From Candidatus Harrysmithiimonas galli (GTDB lineage Bacteria; Bacillota; Bacilli; CAJFEE01): DNA of 64,000 nt. The notes beneath the pieces were generated by a model. The model saw nothing but the letters and a program-made list of their open reading frames with translations. It was not told where the DNA came from and did no database searches. Positions 2,561 to 57,772 of this stretch are shown piece by piece. Position 1 is the first letter of the stretch. The number at the start of each line of letters is the position of its first letter. The DNA lies in contig CAJFEE010000008.1 in NCBI GenBank assembly GCA_904373265.1, positions 1,132 through 65,131 of the forward strand, written 5' to 3'. The position numbers and the translations under genes are program-made.

Positions 2561-2574
2561 TGAAGATTTTACAA

Positions 2575-4446: not shown

Positions 4447-5406
4447 CTAGCTCTCCACAATATGCTTAACAATTCTCTTCACACCTTGTCCATCTACTAG
4501 ATTGGGTAGTTTTTTGAAACCATTTTTCAAAATTTCTTCAAATCTCTGTTGTAAATCTTCAAAACAATAACAAACAGGTATATTAAACTGTTCAAGACCT
4601 TTCGCATTATTTACTTGATTATCAACAACTTGAATTGGAATAAATGGTGTACCTGTACATAACAATTCATAAACCGTTTGACCACAAGCTGAAATAACAC
4701 CCTCACTTTGCTGCATAAATTGTTTCATTTCATCTGCAGATGAATAAGATACCAATTCTATATTTGAAACAAATTGCTTTTCCATTTCAATCTCATCTAA
4801 ACATGTATCATCTGCACCTATAATAATCTTAAAATTTTTTTCTGTATGTTTCGTACAAATTTCTTTTATTATTCTTGGAATTAAATTTAATATATCCATT
4901 CCTCCAAGTGTGACTAACCATTGATTTTTAACTTTCAATGAATTTACATCATTTACACATTTTTGAAATGGTTCTCTTAAAATCGCATAGGCTACTCCAA
5001 GCAGATCATTTTCAATAACCTTTCTCGAATAGCCTAGACTTTTGGCATTTAATGATGGATTGATAATCGTTGCTGTCTCTGGAAATTTCAAACGACAATT
5101 ATCATCAATAACCCACAGTCTCTTTACTTTTTTGGCCAACCATTCATACACATTTATTGAAGCTAAATATGAATCTATAACTACCTGATCATCTTCGGTA
5201 AGAAAACCTTGTAAAAAATCAATGTTTTTCCAATCTGTATATTGATACTCTCCCTCAATTTGTAATGGAAGTTCAGACATTTTATCTATGATTATTTTTA
5301 CTTCTACTTGATGTTTTTGCAATTCTTTATGGATGGCTAGACAGCGTGTGACATGCCCTAGCCCAATTCCTAAACCACCTTCGGTTAGAATATAAATTTT
5401 CTGCAT
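4447..5406 (-). CDS. PseG-like nucleotide-sugar hydrolase (GT28-like fold)
   Basis: 319 aa with N-terminal GGLGIGLGHVTRCLAI and central GGMD..N. The pattern resembles PseG/SpsG. It abuts the PseB-like gene. Confidence 0.65.
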   Translation of the reverse strand: MQKIYILTEGGLGIGLGHVTRCLAIHKELQKHQVEVKIIIDKMSELPLQIEGEYQYTDWKNIDFLQGFLTEDDQVVIDSYLASINVYEWLAKKVKRLWVIDDNCRLKFPETATIINPSLNAKSLGYSRKVIENDLLGVAYAILREPFQKCVNDVNSLKVKNQWLVTLGGMDILNLIPRIIKEICTKHTEKNFKIIIGADDTCLDEIEMEKQFVSNIELVSYSSADEMKQFMQQSEGVISACGQTVYELLCTGTPFIPIQVVDNQVNNAKGLEQFNIPVCYCFEDLQQRFEEILKNGFKKLPNLVDGQGVKRIVKHIVES

Positions 5407-5407
5407 A

Positions 5408-6421
5408 TCAAAATCCCATTTCTAACTGTTTAATTTTCTCACGTAACGCTTTCACATCTAGCCACTCTGAATTTTTTCCAGAACTGTATTCAAATCCACA
5501 TTCAATCTGTTTTCCACCTGGTGTGAAACACTTATCAAAATCCCACCACTCAAAGTTTGGATAAATAATATAGTGCTTATCATATTCATAGGTATTTCGT
5601 GAATCATCCATTGTAATCATAACTTCATGAATTTTCTCACCTTCACGAATTCCAATTTCCTTCGTTAGTAATGTAGGAGCCATCGCTTCTGCCAGATCTA
5701 TAATTTTAAAAGATGGAATCTTGGAAATATAGGTTTCTCCTCCTTTAGATTCCTCTAATGCTTTAAACACAAGCTGAACCCCTTCTTCAAGAGTAATCCA
5801 AAATCTTGTCATCTCATAATCTGTAATTGGGAGCGCATCTGCCCCCGTTTCAATAAGCTTTGTAAAAAAAGGAATCACCGAACCTCGGCTACCAGCTACA
5901 TTCCCATAACGAACGACAGAAAAAATTGGTCCTTCTTGTTTCAAATATCCATTTGCAGATACAAAGAGCTTGTCAGAAGTTAATTTTGTTGCCCCGTATA
6001 AATTAATCGGATTTACTGCCTTATCTGTCGATAAGGCAACAACCTTTTTCACACCTTGATCTATTGCTGCATCAATCACATTCATTGCGCCATGAATATT
6101 CGTATAAATCGCCTCTGTTGGATTGTATTCACAAGCAGGTACTTGTTTCATCGCCGCTGCGTGAATAACATAATCAACACCATTGAATGCCCGATATAAA
6201 CGATTTTGATCACGAACATCTCCAAGAAAAAAGGAAAGTCGAGCCATTTGACTTTCCTTTAATTTTTTTTGGAATAATAGCTTAACCTGAGATTGTTTGA
6301 ACTCATCACGTGAGAAAATAATGATTTTTTTGGGTTGGAATGATTCAAAAATCATCTCAATACATTTTTTTCCGAAGGAGCCTGTCCCACCTGTAATAAG
6401 TATGGTTTGATTGTTTAACAT
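5408..6421 (-). CDS. pseB: UDP-N-acetylglucosamine 4,6-dehydratase (inverting), PseB/FlaA1/CapD-like
   Basis: 337 aa, ILITGGTGSFGKK Rossmann motif, and a YGATK catalytic motif. Confidence 0.85.
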   Translation of the reverse strand: MLNNQTILITGGTGSFGKKCIEMIFESFQPKKIIIFSRDEFKQSQVKLLFQKKLKESQMARLSFFLGDVRDQNRLYRAFNGVDYVIHAAAMKQVPACEYNPTEAIYTNIHGAMNVIDAAIDQGVKKVVALSTDKAVNPINLYGATKLTSDKLFVSANGYLKQEGPIFSVVRYGNVAGSRGSVIPFFTKLIETGADALPITDYEMTRFWITLEEGVQLVFKALEESKGGETYISKIPSFKIIDLAEAMAPTLLTKEIGIREGEKIHEVMITMDDSRNTYEYDKHYIIYPNFEWWDFDKCFTPGGKQIECGFEYSSGKNSEWLDVKALREKIKQLEMGF

Positions 6422-6477
6422 AGACTTTCACTCCTAAACTTAAAAAACATTTTATCTACATCTATTATAACGTAATT

Positions 6478-7566
6478 TTATGATTTAAAAATATCTAAAT
6501 CACAGTTCCTCAATATTTCTCCAGAATTTTTATTACATAAAAATATTTTTCCAACAATCTCCTCCATTTGATAAGGAAAAATCCCATCCCTTGGTGCAGG
6601 ACGTAAAGCAACTACATCTTCTGGCAGTAACACATCCCCTTTATTTTTATCTACTTTCATATAAAGTGCTCTTCTTTGTACAACCACAGTTTCTTTTTCA
6701 TTTTCTTCCACTTTTTTTATATCAGATCCAAGTGCTAACTCAAGTTCTTTTGAACGAGCAACCATTTCTTTCCATGTTTTTGGATTCATAGAAAAAGGAT
6801 GATCAGGTCCTATCCGGTTATTGTCATCTGTAAAATGCTTTTCTATAACACGTGCCCCTAAAGTAATCGCACCCAAAACTGTCGAATGACCGGGTGTATG
6901 ATCAGATAGTCCAAGTATCATTTTTGGATACTTTTTTGCAAATGCACGTAATACATTCAATTGAATATATTTAAAGTTTTCCAAGCTACCTGTATAATTT
7001 GTATTACATTGCATAAGCACAATTTGTCGATTCCAATTAAGAATTTTTTCGACTGCTCTTTCTACATCCGACATTGTAGAAGCTCCTGTTGCTAAAAGAA
7101 CTGGCTTTCCCTTTTGTGAAATCGTTTCAATAAACTCTATCCAAGTTATGTCTCCTGAACCGATTTTGTAAGCAGGGATGTATGAGTCAAGCATATCAAT
7201 CACTTCATAGTCGTATGGTGTCGTAAAAAAATCAATCTTTGCTTTTTTAGCTTCCTCAATTAAAATGAAGTTCCATTCTCGATTTAATTCGTACTGTTTA
7301 AAAACCTCGTATACAGATTTTTCCCAATTGGCTTGGTGCGAGACTTGAACCCCTAATCGTTTAAAACCTGCATCACTTATAATTTGATCCGCCTTAAAAT
7401 GCTGAAATTTCACTGCATCTGCACCAGCTTCTTTTGCCAACCATATCAAATCTTTTGCTCGGGATAACTCTCCATCATGATTTGAAGCAATATCGGCAAT
7501 AAAATACGTAGGGGATTGTAAAGAAATATTTCGATTACCTATCTTAATACTTGAATCATAATTCAT
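6478..7566 (-). CDS. NeuB-family sugar-PEP condensing synthase (nonulosonic acid synthase-like) with C-terminal SAF domain
   Basis: 362 aa with IADIASNHDGELSRAKDLI...AVKFQ. The length and C-terminal region fit NeuB/PseI/SpsE. Confidence 0.8.
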   Translation of the reverse strand: MNYDSSIKIGNRNISLQSPTYFIADIASNHDGELSRAKDLIWLAKEAGADAVKFQHFKADQIISDAGFKRLGVQVSHQANWEKSVYEVFKQYELNREWNFILIEEAKKAKIDFFTTPYDYEVIDMLDSYIPAYKIGSGDITWIEFIETISQKGKPVLLATGASTMSDVERAVEKILNWNRQIVLMQCNTNYTGSLENFKYIQLNVLRAFAKKYPKMILGLSDHTPGHSTVLGAITLGARVIEKHFTDDNNRIGPDHPFSMNPKTWKEMVARSKELELALGSDIKKVEENEKETVVVQRRALYMKVDKNKGDVLLPEDVVALRPAPRDGIFPYQMEEIVGKIFLCNKNSGEILRNCDLDIFKS

Positions 7567-8438
7567 AACAATTCCTCCAAATAATATGTATATAGATTTT
7601 CAATTACCTCATCGATTGACGGAACCTTATTTTTTCTAAGGATTTTTGCTAATTTTTGTGTATCCAATCCTAAAGTATTTGCGCGAATTATCGGAGAACT
7701 TTTTTCCATCCTCCCTTCGGTTATCGATGCCTGCAAACCAAATACAGAAAGAAATCTACAAATAAAATCATATTTTGAAATAGCTGTTGTCGATGCAATA
7801 TTTAGTACACCTGTATATTTTATATCTAATAATTCCAATAAAATTTTGGAAAAACAGTAAATATCAATACTAGAAGTAAAATAGTCTGCATATCCAATAA
7901 TTGACTGTTTTTCTTGTGCTTGTTGAATAACCCATTCAATAAATGTAGGACGCCCTTTTTGATTCCTAAACCCGACAATATTAGTTCGAACAATAAGAGA
8001 TTCTTTATAAGTTTGTGCTAAACATTCACCGATATATTTCGTTCTTGCATATTCATTCACCAATTTCACATCTGCATCTTCACAATGCAGCGTATTCTCT
8101 TTTTCTAAAAAATAATGATCTGTAGAAATTTGAATAAAATAGCTCCCCACTTCTTTACACACATTTGCTAAAATTCCTGGAAATCTTGCATTTACTATAT
8201 AAGCCTGCTCTTTATTTTCTTCGCAATATTTTAAATCAACAATTGCAATTGCGTTAATAACAATATCAGGCTGTTCTTGTAAGATTATTTCACAAATTTC
8301 CTTCTCATCTGTCCGTACATCTAAACAATACTGTGCATCTTTTCTTGACATGGTTAATACATTCTCATACTTCTTGCTTAGTGTAACATAAAGTGCTTGC
8401 CCAAGCATACCTGTAGAACCTAGTAATAATATTTTCAT
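7563..8438 (-). CDS. RmlD-like NAD(P)-dependent sugar reductase (YerF-like candidate)
   Basis: MKILLLGSTGMLGQAL Rossmann N-terminus. The ORF-track start at 8465 is GTG; the ATG at 8438 is the more likely start. Confidence 0.7.
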   Translation of the reverse strand: MKILLLGSTGMLGQALYVTLSKKYENVLTMSRKDAQYCLDVRTDEKEICEIILQEQPDIVINAIAIVDLKYCEENKEQAYIVNARFPGILANVCKEVGSYFIQISTDHYFLEKENTLHCEDADVKLVNEYARTKYIGECLAQTYKESLIVRTNIVGFRNQKGRPTFIEWVIQQAQEKQSIIGYADYFTSSIDIYCFSKILLELLDIKYTGVLNIASTTAISKYDFICRFLSVFGLQASITEGRMEKSSPIIRANTLGLDTQKLAKILRKNKVPSIDEVIENLYTYYLEELL

Positions 8439-8461
8439 TATTCTTATACCTATCTCTATTC

Positions 8462-10234
8462 TCACTCAAATTGTTCAACAACATCTATAAACGGATATAA
8501 TTCTTCTAATGACGAAGAGCTTAATGTACCATCTTGGTTTACTTTTGTTTGTGCTCTTGGAATCTCCTCAAATCTAATATCTCCAATTATTTCACAAATC
8601 ATTGGACGGTTATCTGACAAAGCCATTTTCAACCCTTCACTCAATTGATTTGTATGTTCAATTTTCAAATAAGGTAATCCGTATAGTTTCGCAATCTCTT
8701 TTAAATCCGGCAATCTAACCCCACTGTCTGCATTACAACCTGCCAAATTTCCTTTAAAATGATTATGTTGCATACTATATATGGACGAATATCCATTGTT
8801 ATTATAAATAAATAGTTTGATTGGTAATTGGTAAGTTGTCAGCAGTTGAAGTTCTTGTAAATTATGTTGCAAACTTCCGTCACCTTCAAAAATAATGGTT
8901 CTTCTCTTTCCACTTGCAATACATGCACCAATTACAGAAGGTAAACCATAACCCATAGAGCCTAAACCGCTTGATGAAACAACTCTTTGATTTTCTTTTA
9001 ATTGTATTCCCAAAACAGACGAAGTAAATACACGACCTGTTGGACTCACAACAAAAACATCTTGATCGTCTGATTGTTTGGATAACTCATATGAAAAATC
9101 TAACCCATAAATTCCTTCAGACTGAACAGGCGGTCTTTCTGAATAAATCGGGTATTTTTCTTTCATTTGTTCACAAAAATTCAGCCATTTAGTTTTTGTA
9201 TTAACAAATTTTTGTTCAGAATAAAACACCAAAAATCCTCGCATAAAATCTTTTGCATGACAACAAATTTTCTTCTGAAAGTCGATAGATGATATATTTA
9301 ATTCGTTTTCATCTATATCTACAATATATTTTTTTGCCTTCTTCGCGAAGTTCTTCTCATTATACGCTGTTAAATGTGCATTAATCCTTGCACCAATGAT
9401 CAATAAAAAATCAGCATTTTGCAAAATAAAATTGGAATAGCGTGGTGCGGGAGAGCCCGGATATCCAAAAAATAATGAATCATTATCTTTAAATAAGCCT
9501 TTGGCACGCCATGTCAACAATGTTGGAATTTTTAATTGTTCAACTAATAGTCTTGCTTCTCGTTCTGCTTGTCCCGAAATTACACCTTGACCAAACAAGA
9601 CAATTGGACTCTTAGCCTGTATAAGTTCACAGTATATTTCTTCAAAGTCTTCTTGTTTTACAATGGTTTGGGCACCCTTTTCCAAATGTGGACAAAATCC
9701 TTTTAATGTTTCTATATCAACATCAGCAGCTTGAATATCTAGAGGGATATCAATCCATACTGGTCCTTTTCTTCCTGTCGTTGCCAAATGTATGGCTTTC
9801 TCTAAATGATAACGAATATCTTCTTTATTCATTACTGTAACTGCATATTTTGTAACATCTTTCACCAATTTTGTAATTTGTACTTCTTGTAGACCCTTCA
9901 CACGCACACCTTCTGGCGCAAGCTCTGTTGTTTTAACTTGCCCAGAAATTACCAGCATTGGTGTGCTATCTTGAAAAGCAGAGACAACTCCAGTAATCGC
10001 ATTCGTTGCTCCTGGTCCTGTTGTTACCATACAAACGCCTAAATGGTTTGTATATTGCCCGTAAGCATCGGCACAAATTGATGTCGCTTGTTCATTTAAA
10101 TTATAGTAAGTCGAAATTTGTTCGCTTCTAGAAACGGAATCTAAAAGATGCATCATACCTCCACCTGAAAGTAAAAATACATCTCTTACTCCAATTTGTT
10201 CTAGATAATGAATTACATAATCTGATAATTTCAT
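8462..10234 (-). CDS. Thiamine-diphosphate-dependent enzyme of the acetolactate-synthase family (YerE-like sugar C-branching candidate)
   Basis: 590 aa with N-terminal ThDP pyrimidine-binding domain (GVCMVTTGPGATN). The C-terminal GDGSLQHNLQEL...NNNGY is a ThDP/Mg-binding motif. It sits inside a CDP-sugar cluster, not an ilv operon. Confidence 0.8.
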   Translation of the reverse strand: MKLSDYVIHYLEQIGVRDVFLLSGGGMMHLLDSVSRSEQISTYYNLNEQATSICADAYGQYTNHLGVCMVTTGPGATNAITGVVSAFQDSTPMLVISGQVKTTELAPEGVRVKGLQEVQITKLVKDVTKYAVTVMNKEDIRYHLEKAIHLATTGRKGPVWIDIPLDIQAADVDIETLKGFCPHLEKGAQTIVKQEDFEEIYCELIQAKSPIVLFGQGVISGQAEREARLLVEQLKIPTLLTWRAKGLFKDNDSLFFGYPGSPAPRYSNFILQNADFLLIIGARINAHLTAYNEKNFAKKAKKYIVDIDENELNISSIDFQKKICCHAKDFMRGFLVFYSEQKFVNTKTKWLNFCEQMKEKYPIYSERPPVQSEGIYGLDFSYELSKQSDDQDVFVVSPTGRVFTSSVLGIQLKENQRVVSSSGLGSMGYGLPSVIGACIASGKRRTIIFEGDGSLQHNLQELQLLTTYQLPIKLFIYNNNGYSSIYSMQHNHFKGNLAGCNADSGVRLPDLKEIAKLYGLPYLKIEHTNQLSEGLKMALSDNRPMICEIIGDIRFEEIPRAQTKVNQDGTLSSSSLEELYPFIDVVEQFE

Positions 10235-10246
10235 TTTAGAATTACC

Positions 10247-11274
10247 TCATTTTTCTACAAAACTAAACTTTTTTAAAAGTTCTTCTGTATGATCATCTAG
10301 AATATCTTCTTGTGAAACACTATGATCAGGAACTTCACATACTTTACATACTGGATGCATTCCTCTATTATGACATAAATGCAACCTCAAAAAATTGTTT
10401 CTTATTTTGGAATTCCAAATCTCAGTTATTTTTCTTTTGTGGAAATTTCCATATATAATCGGTTGATGCGCAATACAACAAGGAACAACATTTCCGTTAG
10501 GTAAAACATACAGCATATAGAACGGAGTTGGACAACATTCTAACTTTTCTGATACTGTATCTTCGCATTTCTTCAATCCTGAGACCATTCCTTCATAATC
10601 CACCCCTAAAAATGCTGGAATGATGTTGTCAATATGAATCGTATCACAAATATTTTTAAACATATTTATAAAAACATCTTCTTCTCCTTTATCCAAAGCG
10701 ACATCTACAGTTTTTATATGAATTTTACACCCCCCCCCGCATTTCTGGAATAAGTATATAAAAAAGTCAAATTTTCTATAAATTTCTCCATATTTATATT
10801 ATAATTACATACTCTCTTATACTTTTCTTCTGTAACTCCTTGAATAGATATTACAATTTTCGATAAACCTGCATCTATTATTTTTTTAGACAAGTCTCTA
10901 GTGAGTAAAGATCCATTAGTAACTAATTGAATACATTCTGCTATGTCCTTTTTATATGCATACTCAATCATCTCCGACAAATAACGATTTAATGTAGGTT
11001 CTCCAATACTTGTCAGGACAAGTGTTTTAATTTTTTTAGGAAAATACACCAACTGATCTATCGCCTTAGTAAAATCTTCATAAGAGAAATATTTTCGAAT
11101 AAGGTGTTTTCTTTCTTCGTGCCCAGTAGGTAAAGATTGCGCACAATACTCACAGCTGAAGTTACAAAAATCTCCCATATAAAATCCTACAACATATGGT
11201 GTATCTATAGGAAGCTCCTTGTATAAAACAGTTCTATTATGGGATTCCTTAGAGGATGCATATTTTTCTTTCAT
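10247..11274 (-). pseudogene. Radical-SAM/SPASM enzyme interrupted by a frameshift in a poly-G tract (phase-OFF as sequenced)
   Basis: The N-terminal half (10714..11274) carries CNFSCEYC. The C-terminal half (10247..10696) carries the Cys-rich SPASM region. Both align colinearly with the intact 347-aa paralogue next door. The RBS aaggaggg precedes the ATG at 11274. Confidence 0.85.
10730..10738 (-). repeat. Homopolymeric G9 tract (C9 on plus strand) at the frameshift point
   Basis: Read directly. The minus strand is aat gcg ggg ggg ggt gta aaa ttc ata taa. G10 or G7 would give ...NAGGGCKIHIKTVDVALDKGEEDVF..., continuous with the downstream ORF. Confidence 0.95.
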
Positions 11275-11298
11275 GAAGCATTCCCTCCTTTCTAACAA

Positions 11299-12342
11299 TC
11301 AGTATAACAGTTCCTTATATTTTTCTAGCAATTTCTCTACATGAGGATCAATTTCATCTCCCTCATATGGAACATCATTAGGATAATCACAGTCTTTGCA
11401 AGCAGAATTTTCAAAACGCTTCCCTTCCAACATACCAATTAAAAAGCGATTATGATCCTGACTATTCCACGCTTGTAACAATGTTGTAGTCCGAACATTC
11501 CCAAGCTCTTTACATGGATTAAATGGTGCACCACAAGGTCGAATATCCCCATCTGGGGCAATACTTAGCATATAAAAACTTAAATAACAAGCTTTTTGTT
11601 TTAGATGTGGTCTTCCAAAACGGCTAGTTGTCATATTGGATTCATTATCTCCTAAAATATTTGTATAATCTACATCTGCATATAATGGCTTAATGGTTTC
11701 AATGTGAATTGAATCGCAAATATTACCAAATATTTCAAAAAACTTTTCTTTCTCCCCATCTTCTAATGCAATATCTGCAATTTTAATATTCACTTGACAT
11801 TTTCCTCTGCTATATTCATAAAAATATGTTAAATTTTCTACATATTTATCAAAATTAATCTTTACTCCACATACTTCTTTATATTTTTCTGCTGTCAATC
11901 CTTGTAAAGAAATAAAAATCCGATCCAATCCGGCATCAATAATTTCTTCACTCTTTTTCTTTGTCAAAAGTATCCCGTTTGTAATAAAAGAAACTTCTTC
12001 TGAAACTTTTTCATCTTTGACAATCCGAACCATTTCGGAAAATCTCGGATTTGCTAACGATTCACCTTGTCCTGATAAACTAATAGACTTCACTTTCCTA
12101 GGAAACTGTTTTAATTGTTCAACTGTTTTTATAAAAATTTCCCAATCCATATGTTTATATACAAATCCTTTTTTCTTTAACTCTTCTCCACCAAGAGAAT
12201 GAATACAATATTTACATCCAATATTACAGATTTGAGAAGGACAGATAGTAACTGCATATGGTGTATCTAAAGGAAGTACCTCATGTAAATTTACACGGTT
12301 TGGATTAAAAACGGGTTGAAACTTTGCTTTGATTTCTTTCAT
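11299..12342 (-). CDS. Radical-SAM enzyme with C-terminal SPASM/twitch-like Cys-rich domain
   Basis: 347 aa, CNIGCKYC (CxxxCxxC). C-terminal cysteines: CYLSF...RPCG...CKDCDYP. Confidence 0.85.
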   Translation of the reverse strand: MKEIKAKFQPVFNPNRVNLHEVLPLDTPYAVTICPSQICNIGCKYCIHSLGGEELKKKGFVYKHMDWEIFIKTVEQLKQFPRKVKSISLSGQGESLANPRFSEMVRIVKDEKVSEEVSFITNGILLTKKKSEEIIDAGLDRIFISLQGLTAEKYKEVCGVKINFDKYVENLTYFYEYSRGKCQVNIKIADIALEDGEKEKFFEIFGNICDSIHIETIKPLYADVDYTNILGDNESNMTTSRFGRPHLKQKACYLSFYMLSIAPDGDIRPCGAPFNPCKELGNVRTTTLLQAWNSQDHNRFLIGMLEGKRFENSACKDCDYPNDVPYEGDEIDPHVEKLLEKYKELLY

Positions 12343-13481
12343 TGTACAATCTCCTCCTCTTCATATAAACAATATAAAACCGTATCACATGGTGTAATTG
12401 AATGATGTCTCAAGTATAATTTATACTTCGGAACCAATTTTTTACAATAAGAAATAATGTCTATTAAATCTTCTTTTTTATGATATACACAAATTGCTAA
12501 ATAAGGATGATTGGTCTTTATTGTTTCAGACGCACCTTGTAATGCCTCTAATTCACTACCTTCTATGTCCATTTTCATAAATGTTACTCGTTTCCCATTA
12601 ATTACTTTATCAATGGTGTCTGTATAAAAATATTGTATATCATCATTTGCACCTTGGCTCTGAATGGTTGTTGCCATTGTTAATTCACCATAATCATTAC
12701 AATAATATGCGCATTTATCTTTTTTATTTGAAGCAGCTACTTCATATAATTCAAAATTTGGTAACCCCTTAAGATTTTCTTTAATAAGCTCTGCTGAAGA
12801 ATGAATGGGTTCAAATGCATAAATTCGTTCATACTTTCCATCTGTAAATTCTAAAAACTGTTCTATTGTATCACCGTTATATGCACCTATGTCCACGAAA
12901 ATATGGTTCTCTAATTTAGGAATTAAATTTTTTAAAAAATACTGCTGTGTTGAAGTCATCACCTCCTCATAATAAGACAAATCACCTGTTAACACACTAT
13001 TTAACACACCACAAAATACATTTCTTGACTCCTCATCTTCAAGCAGCTGATAGCTTTTTTCAAACATCTTTAAATGATCAAGTACATATTTTTTTGTAAA
13101 CCCTTTAAACAACGGGTTAAATACATCAAAACGAAATGTATGAATATGCGACATATTCAACTGCTTAATCTGCTCTTGTTTTTCTTTATAAAAGCTGTCA
13201 TTTATAATTACAAATACTTCTTGTTCCATATGTTTCAACTCATTTGGAGCCAATACTGGTAACTCTTTAATTGTTGTACCTTGCTTATTCGGATCATTAT
13301 CACAAAATGCATAGATCTCAACACCATTTTCTTTTAGCAATTTTAAAGCGAGAAACCCTTGATCTCCCGCACCAAAAATAATAACACGCACAGGAGAAGT
13401 ATTTTGATAGCGTTCTAAAAACAGTTCAAATTTGGTTTTCTCTTCACTTAAAATTATTCTACTTTCCAAAGTATCTCCCAT
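12339..13481 (-). CDS. FkbM-family SAM-dependent methyltransferase with N-terminal Rossmann-like domain
   Basis: 380 aa. FMKMDIEGSELEALQGA is typical of the FkbM family. The N-terminal VIIFGAGDQG...DNDPNKQG module is also present. Confidence 0.75.
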   Translation of the reverse strand: MGDTLESRIILSEEKTKFELFLERYQNTSPVRVIIFGAGDQGFLALKLLKENGVEIYAFCDNDPNKQGTTIKELPVLAPNELKHMEQEVFVIINDSFYKEKQEQIKQLNMSHIHTFRFDVFNPLFKGFTKKYVLDHLKMFEKSYQLLEDEESRNVFCGVLNSVLTGDLSYYEEVMTSTQQYFLKNLIPKLENHIFVDIGAYNGDTIEQFLEFTDGKYERIYAFEPIHSSAELIKENLKGLPNFELYEVAASNKKDKCAYYCNDYGELTMATTIQSQGANDDIQYFYTDTIDKVINGKRVTFMKMDIEGSELEALQGASETIKTNHPYLAICVYHKKEDLIDIISYCKKLVPKYKLYLRHHSITPCDTVLYCLYEEEEIVQ

Positions 13482-13495
13482 ATTCTATTCTCTCC

Positions 13496-14350
13496 TTAAT
13501 AAAGTAACTGACCCAAACAAATTTGTTTTCTATGATTCTGATACCACTCAGTCAGTTGATTTATAGAATGCATAATCTCTTCAATGTCTAATCTTATTTC
13601 TTTTACAATTCTATCATTATTCGATGTGTACTCCAATCCATATCCGTCTTTTGCCACAAAAATCGGATAATCCAGCCCTACTGTTTCTTTCACAATTTGC
13701 GCCAACTCATATAGCTCATATATTCGACCTGATGTTGCATTATAGTTTTGATATTTCATCTTATTTTCTATAAAATAAGCAACCATTTTACACAAATCAT
13801 CAATGAATAAATAATCAAATTTCGTATTTTGACGAATGGTAATCGGAAATCCGTATATGGCTTTACAAATTGCATTTGAGATAAATCTACGCTGCCAAAT
13901 TTCATACTTACCGAAAATTCCGAATAAACGGAAGTTATATACATTCGGGAGTTGACTTGCCAATTGCTGCATTGTATACATGCAAAGTCCATAAGTATCC
14001 GAAGGAATCACTTGACCCAAATCGTCCTCAGAAACCTGTACGATATCTTTCTGCTTGCCATATTCTGCGCCACTTCCAAAATAAAGCATCTTTCCATACA
14101 AATTATGATGGGTTGCCAGATTGGTAAACATACGCAAACGCTTTTCAAAATAATCAATCGAACCATCTCTTACATCCAATGCATTGATAACAATATCAAA
14201 ATTTCCTTTAGAAAGACACTGAAATATTGCATTTTCGTCCAATACATCTAGCTCTTGATGACTAGGTGCAACAATTTCATACTTATCTTCAAAATATTCT
14301 TGTATATTTTTCCCAATAAAACCTGATGATCCTAAAATTAAAATTTTCAC
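13496..14350 (-). CDS. Short NAD-dependent epimerase/reductase (CDP-paratose/abequose-synthase-sized 4-ketoreductase candidate)
   Basis: 284 aa with MKILILGSSGFIGKNI Rossmann N-terminus. Confidence 0.7.
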   Translation of the reverse strand: MKILILGSSGFIGKNIQEYFEDKYEIVAPSHQELDVLDENAIFQCLSKGNFDIVINALDVRDGSIDYFEKRLRMFTNLATHHNLYGKMLYFGSGAEYGKQKDIVQVSEDDLGQVIPSDTYGLCMYTMQQLASQLPNVYNFRLFGIFGKYEIWQRRFISNAICKAIYGFPITIRQNTKFDYLFIDDLCKMVAYFIENKMKYQNYNATSGRIYELYELAQIVKETVGLDYPIFVAKDGYGLEYTSNNDRIVKEIRLDIEEIMHSINQLTEWYQNHRKQICLGQLLY

Positions 14351-14380
14351 ACCAATTCTTCATAGCCTCCATATTTTTAT

Positions 14381-15556
14381 TTATGTAAACGATAAAACCT
14401 CATTTTTCAATCCCATACTTTCTATTTGTTCAATAATATTATTAGAATGCAGCATCGAGCATACAATAATAATTGCATCTGCATTTTGATTCTTATAAAG
14501 AACATTGGGAGCTTTAATTGTTTTATCAAAAAACATTTTATCAATTTTACTGCTATTATTATCTACAAAGCATTTTATATTACACTTTCCAAGATTTGTT
14601 GTAGTTAATAAATTCATTGTAAAAGCACCTGTGCCCCACACAATAACATCTTTGCCTTTTTGTATAATTAAATTAATTTTTTCTTGAATTTCTTTTAAGT
14701 CATCTTCTTGACAAGACAAATATTCTTTAACAGCCAAAGCAGTCTCATTATCCTTACAAATTTCTTCAGCTACACTGCATTTTTTAAATACACCTATAGT
14801 GAGTGGTGATGGAAACTCTTTATGATAATAAGTAAAATTATTTCCATCAATCTTTATTAAACCACAACTTGCACATAAATTCTTTAAAGACATCGGTGAA
14901 AAATAATTAATATGCTCTATATTAAATTGATCCGCTACTGGAGTTATAACTTTATTTACTCTAGAATAATCTGGTACATTAATAATCAAAAGCCCATTTT
15001 CACATAAATATTCCTTGATTTTCAAAATTGCTTTATCAGGATGATATAAATGTTCAGCAACACACATTAAAAAAACCACATCAAATTTCCCCTTTAAATC
15101 ATCCGGAACCTCATCATAAACACTTCCTTGCACACCTTTTAGTCCATATTCTTTCAGAATTTTAATACTTGTTAAAGAAGGATCTAAACCTTGAATATTT
15201 TTATATCCTGCTTTTTTCAATTCTAATTCAAAATGAGCATTTCCGACACCAATATTTAAAAGCTCCCCCCCGAGGACTGAATTTTCTGACAAATACTTTT
15301 GACAAATCTTGTAATTGCTGAACTCATGTTCCTTTACATCTTCACCATACCAATTACAATTCTCATAATAATAATCGTAATCTTCTTTTGTAGCTGTAGT
15401 ATCTGCATATACAAATCCACATTCTACACAGGAAACAACATCATAACCATTCGGTAAACGAAATTCTTCCGGAACCGTCATCTTTATTTCGCGAATAAAT
15501 TCAACTGTTTCACTGTTACAAATCGGACATTTTCTCGCTTTACATTTTTTCACCAT
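14381..15556 (-). CDS. Class I SAM-dependent methyltransferase with N-terminal zinc ribbon and C-terminal Rossmann-like module
   Basis: 391 aa. CPICNS...CVECG zinc ribbon, LLNIGVGNAHF SAM motif I, and a C-terminal VIVWGTGAF...DNNSSK module. Confidence 0.75.
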   Translation of the reverse strand: MVKKCKARKCPICNSETVEFIREIKMTVPEEFRLPNGYDVVSCVECGFVYADTTATKEDYDYYYENCNWYGEDVKEHEFSNYKICQKYLSENSVLGGELLNIGVGNAHFELELKKAGYKNIQGLDPSLTSIKILKEYGLKGVQGSVYDEVPDDLKGKFDVVFLMCVAEHLYHPDKAILKIKEYLCENGLLIINVPDYSRVNKVITPVADQFNIEHINYFSPMSLKNLCASCGLIKIDGNNFTYYHKEFPSPLTIGVFKKCSVAEEICKDNETALAVKEYLSCQEDDLKEIQEKINLIIQKGKDVIVWGTGAFTMNLLTTTNLGKCNIKCFVDNNSSKIDKMFFDKTIKAPNVLYKNQNADAIIIVCSMLHSNNIIEQIESMGLKNEVLSFT

Positions 15557-16899
15557 ATATTATCACCCTTTTTTACTCTTTTTCTAATCTTCTCTACCAT
15601 AACCCCAATCATCTCTTCTGTCATACCTGGGTATACACCAATCCAAAAACTATCTTTCATAATTTGATCTGTATTTTCTAAATTACCTACAACACGATAT
15701 TCTGTTTCTGTCAAATTCTCCATACATGGATGACGCAACAAGTTACCTGCAAACAACATTCTTGTTTGAATTTGATTTTCTTCCAGAAATTGAACCAATT
15801 CATCTCGTGTGACTGGACAATTCTCCTTTACGGTAATTAAAAAGCCAAACCAACTTGGATTTGCACAAGGTGCTTGTTCAGGTAAAAGCAAAAAATCTTG
15901 CAGATCTTTTAATCCCTCTTTTAACAACAGCCAATTTTCCCTACGTTGTTCAATAAATTGTGGAAGTTTTTTTAGCTGTGCATAACCAATTGCCGCTTGC
16001 ATATCTGTCACTTTTAAATTAAAGCCAAAATGGGCATATACATATTTATGGTCATATCCAACCGGTAAAGAACCAAATTGCTGCGTGAAACGACATTGAC
16101 AAGTGTTGTCTTTCCCTGACGGACACCAACAATCTCTGCCCCAATCACGAAAAGACTTAATAATCTGATACAACTTCCGATCATTCGTATAAAGCGCTCC
16201 TCCTTCGCCCATTGTCATATGATGTGGTGGATAAAAGCTAGAAGTACCAATATGTCCGATTGTTCCTGTATATTTCCATTCTCCATCCAGTTCATATTGA
16301 CTGCCAAGTGCATCACAATTATCCTCAATTAACCATAAATCATATTTATCACAAAAAGCTTTGACAGCCTTTAAATCAAAAGGATTTCCTAATGTATGTG
16401 CAATCATCACTGCTTTTGTCTTTGAAGAATAGGCCTTTTCAAGATACGTCACATCAATATTATATTGTGGTAACGTTACATCAACAAATACTGGAACCGC
16501 ACCATATTGTACGATTGGCGCAACCGTTGTTGGAAACCCTGCAGCAACTGTAATGACTTCATCTCCTCGACAAATTCGTTTCTTTCCTAATTTTGAAGAA
16601 GTCAAGGCCCAAAATGCAAGGAGATTTGCAGAGGAACCTGAGTTGGTAAGTAAACAATACCGGACTTGTAAAAACTCTGCTAAACTTTTTTCAAACCGAT
16701 CAGCATATTTCCCTGCAGTTAACCAAAATTCAAGGCTACTATCAACCAAATTCACCATTTCATCTTCATCAAAAACACGACCAGCATAAGAAATTTTTTC
16801 CCCGATTTGATAGCTTTTCGGCTGCATATAATTTTGATAATACTGCTTAACAAGCGACAAAATTGCTTCCTTCGCCTGCGCTTGATTTTTATTTTCCAT
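15550..16899 (-). CDS. rfbH: CDP-4-keto-6-deoxy-D-glucose 3-dehydrase (E1; RfbH/DdhC, DegT family)
   Basis: 449 aa. Long colinear matches to RfbH as I recall it, e.g. GDEVITVAAGFPTTV, IAHTLGN, FRDWGRDCWC...DNTC, GYDHKY, NLKVTDMQAA, PSWFGF, FWIGVYPG. Confidence 0.9.
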   Translation of the reverse strand: MENKNQAQAKEAILSLVKQYYQNYMQPKSYQIGEKISYAGRVFDEDEMVNLVDSSLEFWLTAGKYADRFEKSLAEFLQVRYCLLTNSGSSANLLAFWALTSSKLGKKRICRGDEVITVAAGFPTTVAPIVQYGAVPVFVDVTLPQYNIDVTYLEKAYSSKTKAVMIAHTLGNPFDLKAVKAFCDKYDLWLIEDNCDALGSQYELDGEWKYTGTIGHIGTSSFYPPHHMTMGEGGALYTNDRKLYQIIKSFRDWGRDCWCPSGKDNTCQCRFTQQFGSLPVGYDHKYVYAHFGFNLKVTDMQAAIGYAQLKKLPQFIEQRRENWLLLKEGLKDLQDFLLLPEQAPCANPSWFGFLITVKENCPVTRDELVQFLEENQIQTRMLFAGNLLRHPCMENLTETEYRVVGNLENTDQIMKDSFWIGVYPGMTEEMIGVMVEKIRKRVKKGDNIW

Positions 16900-17974
16900 A
16901 TTTCATATTCTCCACGTATTCCAAAATTTGTCGGGTAGTAAATTTACACATATCTTGATTTTTTCTGTATGCATCATACCATTCGACAGTTTTTTTCATT
17001 CCAACTTGTATTTCCCAAACAGGATGCCAATTTAATACCTTTTTAATTTTATCACAGTCTAAACGTAAAAGATTTGCTTCATGTAGAGGATTTGCTTCCT
17101 TTGTCACTTCCCATACTAGAGAAACATCATTCAAATCATTCCATTGGTCACAAAATGCTTGAACCAATTCTTTTGTCTGTAAGCAATCTGAATCATTAGG
17201 TCCTACATTATACGCACCCGCATATACCTGATTTCTGTGCTGAAGTTCTGCAAGTCGTAAATACACAAAAATTGGCTCCAATACATGCTGATACGGGCGA
17301 ACCGAGTACGGCGAACGCAAGATAATTTTTTCCTGATTTTGCACCGCACGAAAGCAATCCGGAATAATACGGTCTTTTGCAAAATCTCCGCCACCAATTA
17401 CATTTCCAGAACGAACTGTACTGACAGATAAATTTTCACGCTGTGAAAAGAAGGATTTTCGATAGGCATCTGTTACCAGCTCAGAACAAGATTTGGAATT
17501 TGAATACGGATCATAACCGTTTAACCGATCTTCTTCTCGATAACCTCGCTGCCATTCCTTATTTTCATATACCTTATCCGTTGTAATATTGACAACCGAA
17601 CGCACACACGAATTCAAACGAACACATTCCATTAAATGAACCGTTCCCATCACATTTGTTTCATAGGTATATACCGGATTTTTATACGATTCTCGCACCA
17701 ATGGCTGTGCCGCCATATGAAACACAATTTCCGGCTGTACTTCTTGGAAAACTTTATTTAACCGTTTGAAATCCTGCATAGGTGCAAGATGGCTTTGTAG
17801 CTTTTGATCCAGCTGTAATAAATCATACAAATTATTTTTATCATTCGGTTGTAAGGCATAACCTACAACATTTGCACCAAGCAAATGTAAAGTTTCACAA
17901 ATCCAGCTTCCTTTAAATCCTGTATGACCTGTAACAAGAACCGTTTTTCCTTGATAAAAATTTACAAGACTCAT
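16889..17974 (-). CDS. rfbG: CDP-glucose 4,6-dehydratase
   Basis: FYQGKTVLVTGHTGFKGSW N-terminus. The likely start is the ATG at 17974, overlapping the rfbF stop as ATGA; the ORF track extends to 18010. Confidence 0.9.
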   Translation of the reverse strand: MSLVNFYQGKTVLVTGHTGFKGSWICETLHLLGANVVGYALQPNDKNNLYDLLQLDQKLQSHLAPMQDFKRLNKVFQEVQPEIVFHMAAQPLVRESYKNPVYTYETNVMGTVHLMECVRLNSCVRSVVNITTDKVYENKEWQRGYREEDRLNGYDPYSNSKSCSELVTDAYRKSFFSQRENLSVSTVRSGNVIGGGDFAKDRIIPDCFRAVQNQEKIILRSPYSVRPYQHVLEPIFVYLRLAELQHRNQVYAGAYNVGPNDSDCLQTKELVQAFCDQWNDLNDVSLVWEVTKEANPLHEANLLRLDCDKIKKVLNWHPVWEIQVGMKKTVEWYDAYRKNQDMCKFTTRQILEYVENMKYGK

Positions 17975-18744
17975 GCCCATTGTTTCCATGGAGCTTGTCC
18001 TCTTTCCCAAAGTTCCTCTAAAATATTTTTATCCCGCAATGTGTCCATACATTGCCAAAATCCAGTATGGCGATATGCCATAAGCTGGTTTGTATTTGCT
18101 AGAGTTTCCAATGGATAGCCTTCAAATGATTCATTTTCATCTCGAATATACGAAAAAACATCCGGTTGCAGTATCATAAATCCGGCATTGATCCACCCAC
18201 CGTCTTCCTTACTTTTTTCACGAAAACTTTGAATTCGATCGTCTTCTTCAATATCAAGTACACCGAATCTTCCTCCCGGTTGAACGGAAGTAATCGTTGC
18301 AAGTTTACCATGTTTTTTATGAAACTTCACAACCTCTGTAATATTCACATCACTCACTCCGTCACCATAGGTAAGCAGAAACGGTTCATTGCCAATATAA
18401 GGCTCAATTTTTTTCACACGTCCACCTGTACTTGTATGTAATCCTGTATCAATTAAAGTGACCTTCCAAGGCTCAGATGTATTATTATGAATTTGCATTT
18501 TATTATTTTTCAAATCAAAAGTTACATCTGACATATGTAAGAAATAGTCAGAAAAAAACTCTTTAATAACATAACCTTTATATCCCAAACAAATGATAAA
18601 CTCTGTATAACCGTAATGCGCGTAGCTTTTCATAATATGCCAGAGTATGGGTTTGCCCCCGATTTCAATCATTGGCTTCGGTTTTAGATGAGATTCCTCA
18701 GAAATACGTGTTCCAAGACCACCTGCTAAAATGACGACTTTCAA
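17971..18744 (-). CDS. rfbF: Glucose-1-phosphate cytidylyltransferase
   Basis: 257 aa with MKVVILAGGLGTRISEESHLKPKPMIEIGGKPILWHIMK. Confidence 0.92.
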   Translation of the reverse strand: MKVVILAGGLGTRISEESHLKPKPMIEIGGKPILWHIMKSYAHYGYTEFIICLGYKGYVIKEFFSDYFLHMSDVTFDLKNNKMQIHNNTSEPWKVTLIDTGLHTSTGGRVKKIEPYIGNEPFLLTYGDGVSDVNITEVVKFHKKHGKLATITSVQPGGRFGVLDIEEDDRIQSFREKSKEDGGWINAGFMILQPDVFSYIRDENESFEGYPLETLANTNQLMAYRHTGFWQCMDTLRDKNILEELWERGQAPWKQWA

Positions 18745-20606
18745 ATTTGTTCCTCCAATCTTCCATAACCATATTCTTTTAAGGTGTTATAATATAAATT
18801 TGTAATTTCTTTATACTCCCTATGATAATTTTCATCCTCCACTTCATATATTTCCTTCAAGCCAATTATGCAGGTTTCATATGTATCTTTTAAAATCATT
18901 TGAATATCATCATTATTTTTCTTATGATAATAAGCAATAGAAATTTTGACTAAATGAAACGTTTTACCACAAAGTAGAAGATAAAGCAAACGTAAAATTC
19001 GCTTGTTTTTATAAAAAAATTGAAATTGTTGAAAAACAGATAAAAAACACAAATGTTGCTTTAAACGTTCCTTATACAAAGCAAATTTTGGGAAATCATT
19101 AATATAATACTCCTCTATAACCTCTTTAGATAGACTTTTAAAATCTTCTTCTTGCTCAGAAGCACCCTCATGGATTACAATAACATTAATTCCATAAACA
19201 TCTCCCAACATACATAACAATAACTCATAGAATATATGTGAATAGAAATTTATACACAATTTCTTTGTATAATTTTCCTTCACATAAGAAATAGCCTCCA
19301 CTTTTAATAGTAAATCTCTTCGAAAAACATTCCCAGATAAATAGTTTGCAGTAAATCCATACTGTCTAATCGCATCTTCACCTTGGCTTGCCAATCCTGT
19401 ACTCTGAATTCTTTGTTGACCATCGCCATATGCTTTAATCATTGACAAATTTCTGTTTGAGACAATCACCTGCAATAGAATATCCAGTTTTTTAATAAAT
19501 ATAGTATCTTCATCACTCAGCATAAAGACAAACTTCCCTTTTGCCAAATTAATAACTTGAGCAAAATTCAGTGTAGAAAATTGGTTACTTTCAAAAGAAA
19601 AATAGGTAATTCTTGCGTCTTCTATTTTTGAAATTTTTTCATAAAATTTTGCTGTATAATTATCTGTACCGTTATTTGAAACCACAATCTCAATTTCATC
19701 ATCATACTCTGATTGTAAATGATGTATGACACTTTCATACGCTCGATGACCCCGATTGTAACTTGGGATTCCGATTGTCAATAAAATATTATCCCGTTTT
19801 CTTGTTAAATCATGAATACGTTGATTATGGATTTCATGAATTAAATCCTCTATATCCTTTTTAGTAAAACTTTGACTTGTACTGATAAAATTTCGTGGTA
19901 AATATGCATTGCATCCTATAAAATAACTTACAACATCCTGTTGATTTCCAAAAATTTTGGTCTGCTGCATAAAAAATAAAAAACGTGACATATCAGGTAG
20001 TTGAAAAAAGGAAAATAAATACTTTATCTTTTCTGTGTAAACATACAATTTTTTCTCATTAGGTATTCTTCTAATATAAGAAATTATCTCATAGATATTT
20101 CCGTCATTTGCGAATAAGTAGTCAGCAAATGGGTTGGTTTTTCTTGGCAATTCTACTGCTCTTTTATCATCAACATCTATACTGATAATTTTTTCTTCTA
20201 GGCGATTATAAAAATATTTTTTTGTGGTTAAAGTCGGAATAAACCACAAGTCTAAATCTTCAAAAGAAACATCTTCATCTATATAAATATTATCCTTCAA
20301 CTGTTCTATAGTTGTTTCATAATTTTCTTTACATTCTTCTAAATTCGGCTCAATAAATGCTTCGTACACAATTTGACGAATCTCCTCTTTTGGAAAGCCA
20401 TATTCTTGTGCCTGTGCAAAAAAATTCATACATTGATCATAATTTTCTAAACGAAACATAAAAAAAGCATAATGTAAATAAAACTCTGCTTTTTGATCGT
20501 TAGAAGCATAAACCAAGACTCGCTCTAATTGTTGATACGCTTCCAAAGCTTGTTGAGTATTTTCAATGTGACAAATTTTTTCTAGTTGCTGCAAAAGAGC
20601 ATCCAT
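18741..20606 (-). CDS. Family-2 glycosyltransferase with N-terminal TPR-like region (flagellin glycosyltransferase candidate)
   Basis: 621 aa. GT2 signature LLTIGIPSYNRGH...IVVSNNGTDN and an SDEDT acidic motif. It is the first gene of the island. Confidence 0.7.
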   Translation of the reverse strand: MDALLQQLEKICHIENTQQALEAYQQLERVLVYASNDQKAEFYLHYAFFMFRLENYDQCMNFFAQAQEYGFPKEEIRQIVYEAFIEPNLEECKENYETTIEQLKDNIYIDEDVSFEDLDLWFIPTLTTKKYFYNRLEEKIISIDVDDKRAVELPRKTNPFADYLFANDGNIYEIISYIRRIPNEKKLYVYTEKIKYLFSFFQLPDMSRFLFFMQQTKIFGNQQDVVSYFIGCNAYLPRNFISTSQSFTKKDIEDLIHEIHNQRIHDLTRKRDNILLTIGIPSYNRGHRAYESVIHHLQSEYDDEIEIVVSNNGTDNYTAKFYEKISKIEDARITYFSFESNQFSTLNFAQVINLAKGKFVFMLSDEDTIFIKKLDILLQVIVSNRNLSMIKAYGDGQQRIQSTGLASQGEDAIRQYGFTANYLSGNVFRRDLLLKVEAISYVKENYTKKLCINFYSHIFYELLLCMLGDVYGINVIVIHEGASEQEEDFKSLSKEVIEEYYINDFPKFALYKERLKQHLCFLSVFQQFQFFYKNKRILRLLYLLLCGKTFHLVKISIAYYHKKNNDDIQMILKDTYETCIIGLKEIYEVEDENYHREYKEITNLYYNTLKEYGYGRLEEQI

Positions 20607-20716: not shown

Positions 20717-20743
20717 GTATCGGCAAATCCCATCCTAAATTTA
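20717..20743 (-). promoter_or_regulatory. Sigma-D (sigma-28) type promoter in front of the glycosylation island
   Basis: Minus strand reads TAAA (20743-20740), a 15-nt spacer, then GCCGATAC (20724-20717). It lies ~110 nt upstream of the GT2-TPR start. Confidence 0.6.
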
Positions 20744-57432: not shown

Positions 57433-57471
57433 GACATGACCCCCTTTAAAACTATTCCTTTTTACAATCAT

Positions 57472-57760: not shown

Positions 57761-57772
57761 CTTTGTATATTT

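Follow-up and report, generated by a model that had tools for sequence, protein, structure and literature searches.

A flagellin-linked gene island in Candidatus Harrysmithiimonas galli that may build a CDP-activated acyl-branched dideoxyhexose

Genes of the island

In Candidatus Harrysmithiimonas galli, an uncultured member of the Bacillota, a tightly packed array of sugar-synthesis genes is co-oriented with the flagellin gene and lies immediately upstream of it and of maf. We analysed this array, called the island below, in a 64-kb stretch of contig CAJFEE010000008.1 (the window; guanine-plus-cytosine (GC) content 34%). Of the genome, we examined the window together with flanking stretches of up to 10 kb. 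The island occupies window positions 4447-20606 and consists of 14 genes, which are read as 15 open reading frames (ORFs), all on the minus strand and with overlaps or gaps of no more than 56 bp. The divergent pgi gene (20867-22201, plus strand) forms its upstream flank, and fliC and maf lie on the other side. The ORFs thus confirm the packed co-oriented array between flagellin/maf and pgi that the initial annotation of this DNA had described. Gene identities were assigned by Pfam and NCBIfam profile searches with the NCBIfam equivalog cut-offs as thresholds. For comparison, we used the scanned island variants of the host species (L001-L019), 80 related loci with one genome per species (L020-L099) and further loci reached via members of the RfbH cluster (L100-L104), which include the island type B described below.

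In the order of transcription, the island encodes a family 2 glycosyltransferase (GT2) of 621 aa, RfbF, RfbG, RfbH (E1), a methyltransferase of the Methyltransf_23 family (391 aa) and an extended short-chain dehydrogenase/reductase (SDR) of 284 aa. These are followed by an FkbM methyltransferase (380 aa), a radical S-adenosylmethionine (SAM)/SPASM enzyme of 347 aa and a second such enzyme split into ORFs of 194 and 149 aa. The last genes encode a thiamine diphosphate (ThDP)-dependent enzyme of 590 aa, an RmlD-like SDR of 300 aa, a NeuB-like protein of 362 aa, PseB and a PseG-like protein of 319 aa. The earlier gene list was correct as far as it went, but it ended before the NeuB-like, PseB and PseG-like genes, and these three alter the interpretation.

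The fliC gene (2575-3828, minus strand) encodes a flagellin of 417 aa with Flagellin_N and Flagellin_C domains (NF009446, 362 bits), the presumed glycan acceptor. It is followed by maf (617-2494, minus strand), whose product belongs to the motility-associated factor (Maf) family of flagellin glycosyltransferases (MptE-like, 105 bits; Maf_flag10_N, 37 bits). A strong hairpin resembling an intrinsic terminator lies after fliC (2533-2561, minus strand) and is the only strong one on the minus strand between positions 1000 and 20950. About 110 bp upstream of the first island gene, we found the motif TAAA-N15-GCCGATA (20718-20743, minus strand), and about 125 bp upstream of fliC the motif TAAA-N15-TCCGATAT (3953-3977, minus strand). 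Both match TAAA-N15-(G/T)CCGATA, the Bacillus sigma-D (sigma-28) pattern, and by this match they may serve as flagellar promoters. In all, the 64 kb contain three matches, where 0.52 would be expected. The third, to TAAA-N15-xCCGATA (24535-24560, plus strand), falls within an ORF of the minus strand and is probably a chance match. A generic sigma-70 scan gave no enrichment (108 sites against 98 expected).

The rfbF-rfbG-rfbH route to cytidine diphosphate (CDP)-4-keto-3,6-dideoxyglucose that had been proposed for the island stands, since all three products score above the equivalog cut-offs. RfbF/AscA (17971-18744) is the glucose-1-phosphate cytidylyltransferase (TIGR02623, 426.6 bits against a cut-off of 300.25). 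RfbG/AscB (16889-18010; gene callers start it at 17989, which gives 366 aa) is the CDP-glucose 4,6-dehydratase (TIGR02622, 450.4 against 278.45). RfbH/AscC (15550-16899) is the pyridoxamine 5'-phosphate-dependent CDP-6-deoxy-L-threo-D-glycero-4-hexulose 3-dehydrase, E1 (NF011936, 740.8 against 423), and it matches the Yersinia E1 structure 3BCX with 533 bits. In the alignment to 3BCX, a His takes the place of the Schiff-base Lys (the HH within YPPHHMTMGEGG). RfbH also has a Cys-rich segment, CxC...CxC, in which CWC...CQC aligns with CYC..C...C of E1; the third E1 Cys is substituted and one extra Cys follows. Judged by profile and alignment, RfbH is a true E1.

The 590-aa ThDP enzyme (8462-10234) has the N, M and C domains of the TPP_enzyme families and conserves the GDG motif in its canonical form along with the catalytic Glu. 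Its score with the acetolactate synthase model TIGR00118 is 313.5 bits against a cut-off of 538.35, and it stays far below all cut-offs for acetohydroxyacid synthases (AHAS), though its top NCBIfam names are acetolactate-synthase models. The window contains an internal control, a bona fide IlvB (55744-57471, minus strand; TIGR00118, 794.4 bits), which is preceded by a T-box leader (57521-57763, minus strand; RF00230, 113.9 bits) and has ilvD (57773-59479, minus strand) directly upstream. The ThDP enzyme is 27% identical to this IlvB, and no small-subunit gene adjoins the ThDP gene. Its best sequence match in the PDB was JanthE (8rph) with 320 bits and about 31% identity, followed by 5ahk with 233 bits and E. 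coli AHAS I with 217 bits. JanthE of Janthinobacterium sp. HH01 is a characterised YerE-like aldehyde-ketone carboligase (PMC12188165). In a neighbour-joining tree, the ThDP enzyme and 16 relatives grouped with JanthE with 100% bootstrap support, and the window's IlvB and E. coli IlvB fell outside. The enzyme thus did not cluster with bona fide acetolactate synthases. The profile score, the JanthE clade and the synteny with rfbFGH shown below agree with the earlier view that this protein is YerE-like rather than an acetolactate synthase. We annotate it as a predicted YerE/JanthE-like ThDP-dependent carboligase; its expected reaction is to decarboxylate a 2-keto acid and join the remainder to C-4 of CDP-4-keto-3,6-dideoxyglucose.

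The NeuB-like protein (6478-7566) is a divergent member of the NeuB family of phosphoenolpyruvate (PEP)-dependent 3-deoxy-2-ulosonic acid synthases and has a SAF domain (PF03102, 239 bits). It scores below the equivalogs for both NeuB (TIGR03569, 273 against 400) and PseI (TIGR03586, 233 against 340); its GLSDHT and EKHFT metal-site motifs align with NmNeuB (1xuu). PseB (5408-6421) is an inverting UDP-N-acetylglucosamine (UDP-GlcNAc) 4,6-dehydratase (TIGR03589, 516 bits against 407.75). The PseG-like protein (4447-5406) is a nucleotide-sugar hydrolase of the GT-B type without a CMP-synthetase domain (TIGR03590, 137.6 against 153.55). The RmlD-like SDR (7563-8465; 291-300 aa) reaches 112.6 bits with PF04321 and 134 with TIGR01214, whose cut-off is 224. 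From these assignments, PseB together with the RmlD-like reductase, PseG-like hydrolase and NeuB-like synthase makes up a plausible route from UDP-GlcNAc to a 5-acetamido-3,5,9-trideoxy-nonulosonic acid, with no CMP step. The Pfam and NCBIfam searches of the island ORFs gave neither PseC nor PseH. We considered a complete pseudaminic acid (Pse) pathway in this strain and rejected it because PseC, PseH and PseF are missing. At the same time, the contrast drawn earlier between this island and nonulosonic-acid glycans was overstated, since the island itself has PseB, PseG-like and NeuB-like genes, together with Maf.

Among the remaining genes, the 621-aa GT2 (18741-20606) is a candidate CDP-sugar transferase. 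Its central GT2 domain (residues 277-386; Pfam Glycos_transf_2, 38.7 bits) follows a helical N-terminal region, and a PDB sequence search gave no match for it. The earlier label, a GT2 with tetratricopeptide repeats (TPR), is right for the GT2 domain; the repeats amount to a sub-threshold hint (TPR_19, E=0.032), and the single-sequence AlphaFold2 model is poor (mean pLDDT confidence score 43). Beside the ThDP gene of L029, L031, L032, L034, L052 and L058, there are likewise large proteins whose GT2 domain is central. The Methyltransf_23 protein (14381-15556) is a class-I SAM methyltransferase with an N-terminal Cys4 domain, and the FkbM-family methyltransferase (12339-13481) is recognised by PF05050 and TIGR01444. 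The first radical-SAM/SPASM enzyme (11299-12342) is twitch-like, has CxxxCxxC at residues 39-46 and may act in sugar tailoring. The second (10247-11298) is its paralogue with 39% identity. Both radical-SAM/SPASM genes named in the initial annotation were found; the second is frameshifted in the window at a poly-G tract and gives an intact protein of 342 aa when the tract has ten residues (G10).

Conserved neighbours and strain variants of the ThDP gene

The scan of one genome per species gave 80 ThDP-family loci, 79 of them with a called ThDP ORF and many incomplete; their ORFs were clustered and the cluster representatives annotated. The loci come from Bacillota, Acidobacteriota, Omnitrophota, Elusimicrobia, archaea and other groups. 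RfbH was found in 47 of the 79 loci, and 55 of them have one or more rfb genes. This comparison of gene neighbourhoods, proposed in the initial annotation, links the ThDP family with rfb genes, and the linkage supports CDP-4-keto-3,6-dideoxyglucose as the acceptor. Another neighbour is a gene of the NeuB family, which encodes NeuB by itself or fused to a cupin; it is present in 58 of the 79 loci and lies no more than two genes from the ThDP gene in 46. The usual orders are RfbF RfbG RfbH NeuB HAD ThDP (NeuB-HAD-ThDP, for example, in L066 and L097) and NeuB-cupin NT5C ThDP (L061, L055). An HMGL-type aldolase gene occurs in seven loci, often immediately 5' of the ThDP gene (for example, L065, L080, L094, L098). 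HMGL aldolase and NeuB are mutually exclusive, with no locus carrying both.

NeuB enzymes make 3-deoxy-2-ulosonic acids, that is, gamma-hydroxy-2-keto acids. The donors of the ThDP-dependent ErwE, MMAR_2332 and MyGE are hydroxy-2-keto acids from cluster-encoded aldolases, and ErwE refuses pyruvate (PMC9306805). HMGL is the aldolase family that supplies the ErwE donor in Pectobacterium (PMC9306805). The NeuB/HMGL pattern thus fits the published "unifying scheme" of acyl-branched sugars (PMC9306805), in which the branch comes from longer hydroxy-keto acids. With NeuB or the mutually exclusive HMGL aldolase as the conserved neighbour of the ThDP gene, the simple two-carbon branch of the yersiniose type that was suggested earlier is not the best-supported one.

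Several other genes accompany the ThDP family. FkbM homologues were found in 33 of the 79 loci. Genes for radical-SAM/SPASM, B12-radical-SAM, NUDIX, GFO/IDH/MocA and SIS proteins also recur near the ThDP gene across phyla. L020 and L029 have NeuB and a NeuC-like epimerase beside the ThDP gene (L029 also has a NeuD-like acetyltransferase), without NeuA. In L057 (740-3924), from the Vallitaleaceae, a flagellin gene is followed by a GT2-TPR protein with a GmaR-like domain order and then by a complete RfbF...NeuB-cupin-ThDP...RfbG-RfbH cluster, without Maf.

The neighbour comparison also bears on the reductase. The initial annotation had paired the ThDP enzyme with the next gene, the RmlD-like SDR, as YerE and YerF. 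The ThDP enzyme is YerE-like and the adjacency is real, but the RmlD-like SDR is a doubtful YerF. Its gene is missing from island type B, which retains the ThDP gene; outside the host species, it was found only in L021 and L026, beside a 54-55%-identical NeuB, so it is tied to this NeuB type. By contrast, the 284-aa extended SDR (13496-14350; Pfam Epimerase) is retained in every island type. Its homologues are present in 21 loci overall and lie immediately 3' of the ThDP gene in L021, L024, L026, L027, L028 and L029. Because the RmlD-like gene is lost in type B and the 284-aa SDR adjoins the ThDP gene in relatives, we assign the putative YerF-like role, reduction of the branch carbonyl, to the 284-aa SDR as the best candidate. 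The assignment was made by synteny, in a comparison that contained no YerF sequence, and PMC4753412 makes no mention of YerF. The RmlD-like SDR is more likely the 4-ketoreductase of the PseB/NeuB module.

The host species has three or more versions of the island, all next to the same FliC and Maf. Those found are type A (the window), type A' (L016, L017) and type B (L100-L102, L011, L012). Types A' and B are both without the Methyltransf_23 gene. In type B, the RmlD-like and NeuB-like genes are replaced by genes for a PseH-like protein, two formyltransferases, a PIG-L deacetylase, PseI and PseC. This PseI is a true one (498 bits against 340) and PseC is near the threshold; PseF is still missing. 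Identity between types A and B is 98-100% for GT2, RfbF, RfbG and RfbH, 99-100% for FliC and Maf and 96% for FkbM. It decreases to 88-89% for PseB, 86% for the 284-aa SDR, 79% for the first radical-SAM enzyme and 74% for the ThDP enzyme, and further to 72-76% for the PseG-like protein, 51-57% for the second radical-SAM enzyme and 35% for NeuB. Thus, the middle of the operon, from the SDR to the NeuB gene and including the ThDP gene, is swapped between strains as a cassette. The ThDP allele shifts together with the ulosonic-acid module, and the genes that make the acceptor remain constant. This is what would be expected if the module feeds the donor to the ThDP enzyme.

Proposed pathway and its alternatives

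We propose that the island is a flagellin O-glycosylation operon that builds a CDP-activated, C-4 acyl-branched 3,6-dideoxyhexose, and we give this explanation as a whole a probability of about one half. Its core, a flagellin-linked RfbF/G/H and YerE-like (JanthE-clade) ThDP branch pathway, is likely. Gene identities, synteny counts, tract polymorphism and cassette variation were observed; each reaction of the scheme is inferred, as are its donor, acceptor protein and regulation. The operon would probably be transcribed under the flagellar sigma factor. RfbF, RfbG and RfbH would convert glucose-1-phosphate to CDP-4-keto-3,6-dideoxy-D-glucose. The ThDP enzyme would decarboxylate a 2-keto acid and add the acyl anion to the C-4 ketone, and the new side-chain carbonyl would be reduced by an SDR, most likely the 284-aa one. 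The two methyltransferases and the two radical-SAM/SPASM enzymes could then tailor the sugar before its transfer to flagellin by the 621-aa GT2 and/or Maf.

With regard to the donor, we tentatively suggest, at somewhat less than even odds, that it is a NeuB-made ulosonic acid and not pyruvate. It would be produced within the same operon by PseB and by the RmlD-like, PseG-like and NeuB-like enzymes. A CMP-sugar synthetase would be missing from the island because the ulosonic acid would serve as the donor for the ThDP enzyme and not as a CMP-sugar. This would yield an N-acetylated sugar of 14 carbons with a C8 branch, whose residue mass would be about 379 Da before methyl groups are counted. In its most far-reaching form, a nonulosonic-type acid that is never CMP-activated is grafted by the ThDP enzyme onto C-4, Maf or GT2 transfers from the CDP donor, and NeuB is the main supplier of keto acids across the family; in this full form, we regard the proposal as unlikely. 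If it is true and the ulosonic acid is the donor, the NeuB family would have a second metabolic role, and Maf or GT2 would have a new class of donor.

The strongest alternative is that the island makes two independent sugars. One would be a yersiniose-type CDP-sugar with a C2 unit from pyruvate, built by the rfbFGH, ThDP and SDR genes and transferred by GT2. The other would be a Pse-like nonulosonic acid, made by PseB, the PseG-like and the NeuB-like proteins (with PseC and PseH added in type B), activated with CMP by a PseF encoded elsewhere and transferred by Maf. Several observations are in its favour and weigh against our proposal. Maf proteins are classically CMP-nonulosonate transferases. 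Maf is present here, two transferases suit two donors, and it is more parsimonious to assume two sugars for them than a single one. Type B, which combines PseB, a near-cut-off PseC, PseH-like and PseG-like proteins and a true PseI, has a near-complete classical Pse route, as would fit a separate Pse glycan. In three closely related loci from Bacillota (L023, 13578-15203; L027, 12700-14331; L032, 11801-13453), a fusion of about 545 aa, composed of CTP_transf_3 and a PseG-like part (PseF-PseG), is encoded directly beside ThDP and NeuB genes. There, the ulosonic acid probably undergoes CMP activation and serves as a separate sugar. The PseG-like protein of the window matches the C-terminal half only of these fusions, and pseF could be located in another part of the genome. 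In addition, YerE itself uses pyruvate (PMC9306805).

Some further points also count against our proposal. None of the island genes encodes E3 (AscD/RfbI), the flavin/2Fe-2S reductase, as all 15 ORFs fall in other families. No conserved E3-like cluster was seen either among the neighbour clusters that were annotated for the 79 related loci. The electron donor for RfbH could come from elsewhere in the genome. The tree was built without the YpYerE and ErwE sequences. The structure 5ahk, presumably PpYerE, grouped with AHAS in this tree.

However, the two-sugar explanation meets several difficulties. We found no CMP-sugar synthetase (CTP_transf_3-like) gene in the window or in L001-L019, and the called genes of L100-L104 gave no Pfam match of this kind, so that no scanned island variant of the species has one. 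Among the 80 related loci, CTP_transf_3-like ORFs are present in five and absent from 75. This screen started from KdsB and NeuA query sequences, which were then iterated, and its dependence on these queries also counts against our proposal. Two sugars would also leave unexplained the NeuB-(phosphatase)-ThDP adjacency and the NeuB/HMGL exclusion across phyla, and the ThDP allele changes in step with the NeuB module against an unchanged rfbFGH. In L034, L046 and L057, FliC, Maf or GT2-TPR is linked to ThDP/NeuB-cupin clusters with no CMP synthetase. The NeuB and NeuC-like genes beside ThDP in L020 and L029, with no NeuA, point the same way. On balance, we consider two independent sugars possible but doubtful.

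A role of the island in some other glycoconjugate (an S-layer protein, a wall polysaccharide or a capsule, for example), with an adjacency to fliC that is incidental, is improbable. Most relatives of the ThDP cluster do lie away from flagellin genes, and many are accompanied by a polyprenyl-phosphate-type GT2 and GtrA-like envelope-glycan genes. The island, however, has no polyprenyl-type GT2, flippase or polymerase. It has the same orientation as fliC and maf, lies directly upstream of them and shares the sigma-D-like motif with fliC. Flagellin islands are typified by PseB, PseG-like proteins and Maf, and FliC and/or Maf are found beside ThDP clusters in four other Clostridia species (L034, L046, L052, L057). 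Thus, the fliC/maf context supports the flagellin-linked glycosylation operon of the initial annotation, in which the glycan would be attached to flagellin.

We also assessed whether the frameshifts mark a decaying island. Two poly-G tracts, G9 in the second radical-SAM gene (10730-10738; C9 on the plus strand) and G7 in the Methyltransf_23 gene (15265-15271; C7 on the plus strand), are the only runs of seven or more G or C in the window, and both are poly-G on the coding strand of island genes. The G9 tract is out of frame. The G7 tract, located near aa 96 just before the SAM motif, is in frame. Between otherwise identical contigs of different samples, tract lengths vary and thereby open or close the reading frames. 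In the second radical-SAM gene, we observed G8, G9, G10 and G11, of which G10 is in frame (L002, L005); in the Methyltransf_23 gene, we observed G7, G8 and G9, with G7 in frame and G8 and G9 out of frame. A third poly-G tract (G8 or G9) is present in a formyltransferase gene of type B. Poly-G tracts in other loci lie at 7009 in L011, 4569 in L012 and 14951 in L016.

If the island were decaying, the frameshifts would be pseudogenes or assembly errors and there would be no defined glycan. This agrees with the second radical-SAM gene being out of frame in most assemblies (G8, G9, G11). It also agrees with the error-prone homopolymer calls of the short-read assemblies from which the tract lengths were taken, a point that equally counts against reading the tracts as switches. 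On the other hand, no stops or indels besides the poly-G tracts were found in 16 kb over many samples, and in-frame versions exist for both genes. The tracts are the sole runs of this kind in a 64-kb window with 34% GC, and type B has a third one. Decay is therefore very improbable. Apparently, the poly-G tracts are phase-variable contingency loci, as compared between samples rather than within one clone, and slippage in them would switch individual tailoring genes. Together with the cassette exchange, these switches point to diversifying selection on the flagellar glycan, for which the literature searched holds no Gram-positive flagellar precedent.

The top NCBIfam names of the 590-aa protein and the labels of its homologues in some sources would make it a second acetolactate synthase of the ordinary kind, a view that we rejected with near certainty on its profile score (313 against 538), on the true IlvB in the same window with which it shares only 27% identity, on its separate JanthE clade, on the lack of a neighbouring small subunit and on the kept synteny with rfbFGH.

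Relation to known systems

Among the closest known systems is the yersiniose A pathway of Yersinia pseudotuberculosis O:6 (AscA-D, YerE, YerF). The island shares with it the cytidylyltransferase, the 4,6-dehydratase and E1, a three-domain YerE-like ThDP enzyme and reductases of the NAD(P)H type. Unlike yersiniose A synthesis, it lies in a Gram-positive flagellin locus rather than in an O-antigen cluster, has no E3, carries a ThDP enzyme of the JanthE-related clade and adds NeuB, PseB and PseG genes, methyltransferases and radical-SAM enzymes; its donor is probably not pyruvate. The flagellin island of Campylobacter jejuni, with its pse/leg genes, likewise has Maf and PseB-type genes by flagellin, poly-G tracts in glycan-tailoring genes and a strain-variable content. 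The island described here, in contrast, belongs to another phylum, is centred on CDP-dideoxyhexose and ThDP chemistry and, in this strain, is without PseC, PseH and PseF.

The erwiniose, caryophyllose and gastriose clusters (ErwE/F/I/J, MMAR_2331-2333, MyGE; Steitz et al. 2022, PMC9306805) have the same acceptor genes, a YerE-like enzyme, a reductase, an enzyme forming a gamma-hydroxy-2-keto acid and sometimes a SAM methyltransferase. In those clusters, the keto acid is formed by a pyruvate aldolase. No pyruvate aldolase was found in the island, and a PEP-dependent NeuB-family synthase is present instead, which would be fed by PseB and the PseG-like protein and whose putative role in donor supply is suggested by synteny. 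The target is lipopolysaccharide (LPS) or lipooligosaccharide there and, by prediction, flagellin here. JanthE, which is sister to the ThDP family in the tree, accepts ketones and long 2-keto acids; its motif is CDG, as against GDG here, and its physiological context is different or unclear. More than 200 YerE-like clusters have been predicted, with products mostly unassigned, and YerE-like enzymes serve mainly cell-envelope structures such as LPS (PMC12247030).

Cytoplasmic glycosyltransferases beside flagellin are known for GmaR in Listeria, FlmG in Caulobacter (PMC7591256) and Maf-dependent Pse transfer in Aeromonas (PMC4065374), as in the island. Compared with GmaR and FlmG, an architecture of GT2 plus helical repeats is plausible for the 621-aa protein and clear in L057; in the 621-aa protein, the domain order is a different one, with GT2 in the centre, and the TPR match is sub-threshold. 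The donors of GmaR, FlmG and Maf are UDP-GlcNAc or CMP-Pse, whereas the donor predicted here is a CDP-sugar. Our literature searches gave no paper that joins flagellin with CDP-glucose, dideoxy or thiamine chemistry, or YerE-like or ThDP enzymes with NeuB or nonulosonic acids. Thus, the chemistry and the logic are known, the predicted cellular target is new, and the type of donor-forming enzyme is probably new. Acyl-branched sugars have so far been tied to LPS and lipooligosaccharides, and a flagellin version in Bacillota would move this chemistry to a major surface appendage. The coupling of NeuB, phosphatase and ThDP genes, with the HMGL aldolase as the alternative, would give a rule for predicting the branch donor.

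The downstream limit of the island can be placed with longer contigs of the same organism. After maf, they carry an ORF of 182 aa and then the pur operon, so the island is bounded. This ORF (L001, 20528-21076) lies just past the left end of the window, downstream of maf, and is conserved, with no Pfam match. It is followed by about 2.5 kb without a called gene, where many assemblies break, and then by purE.

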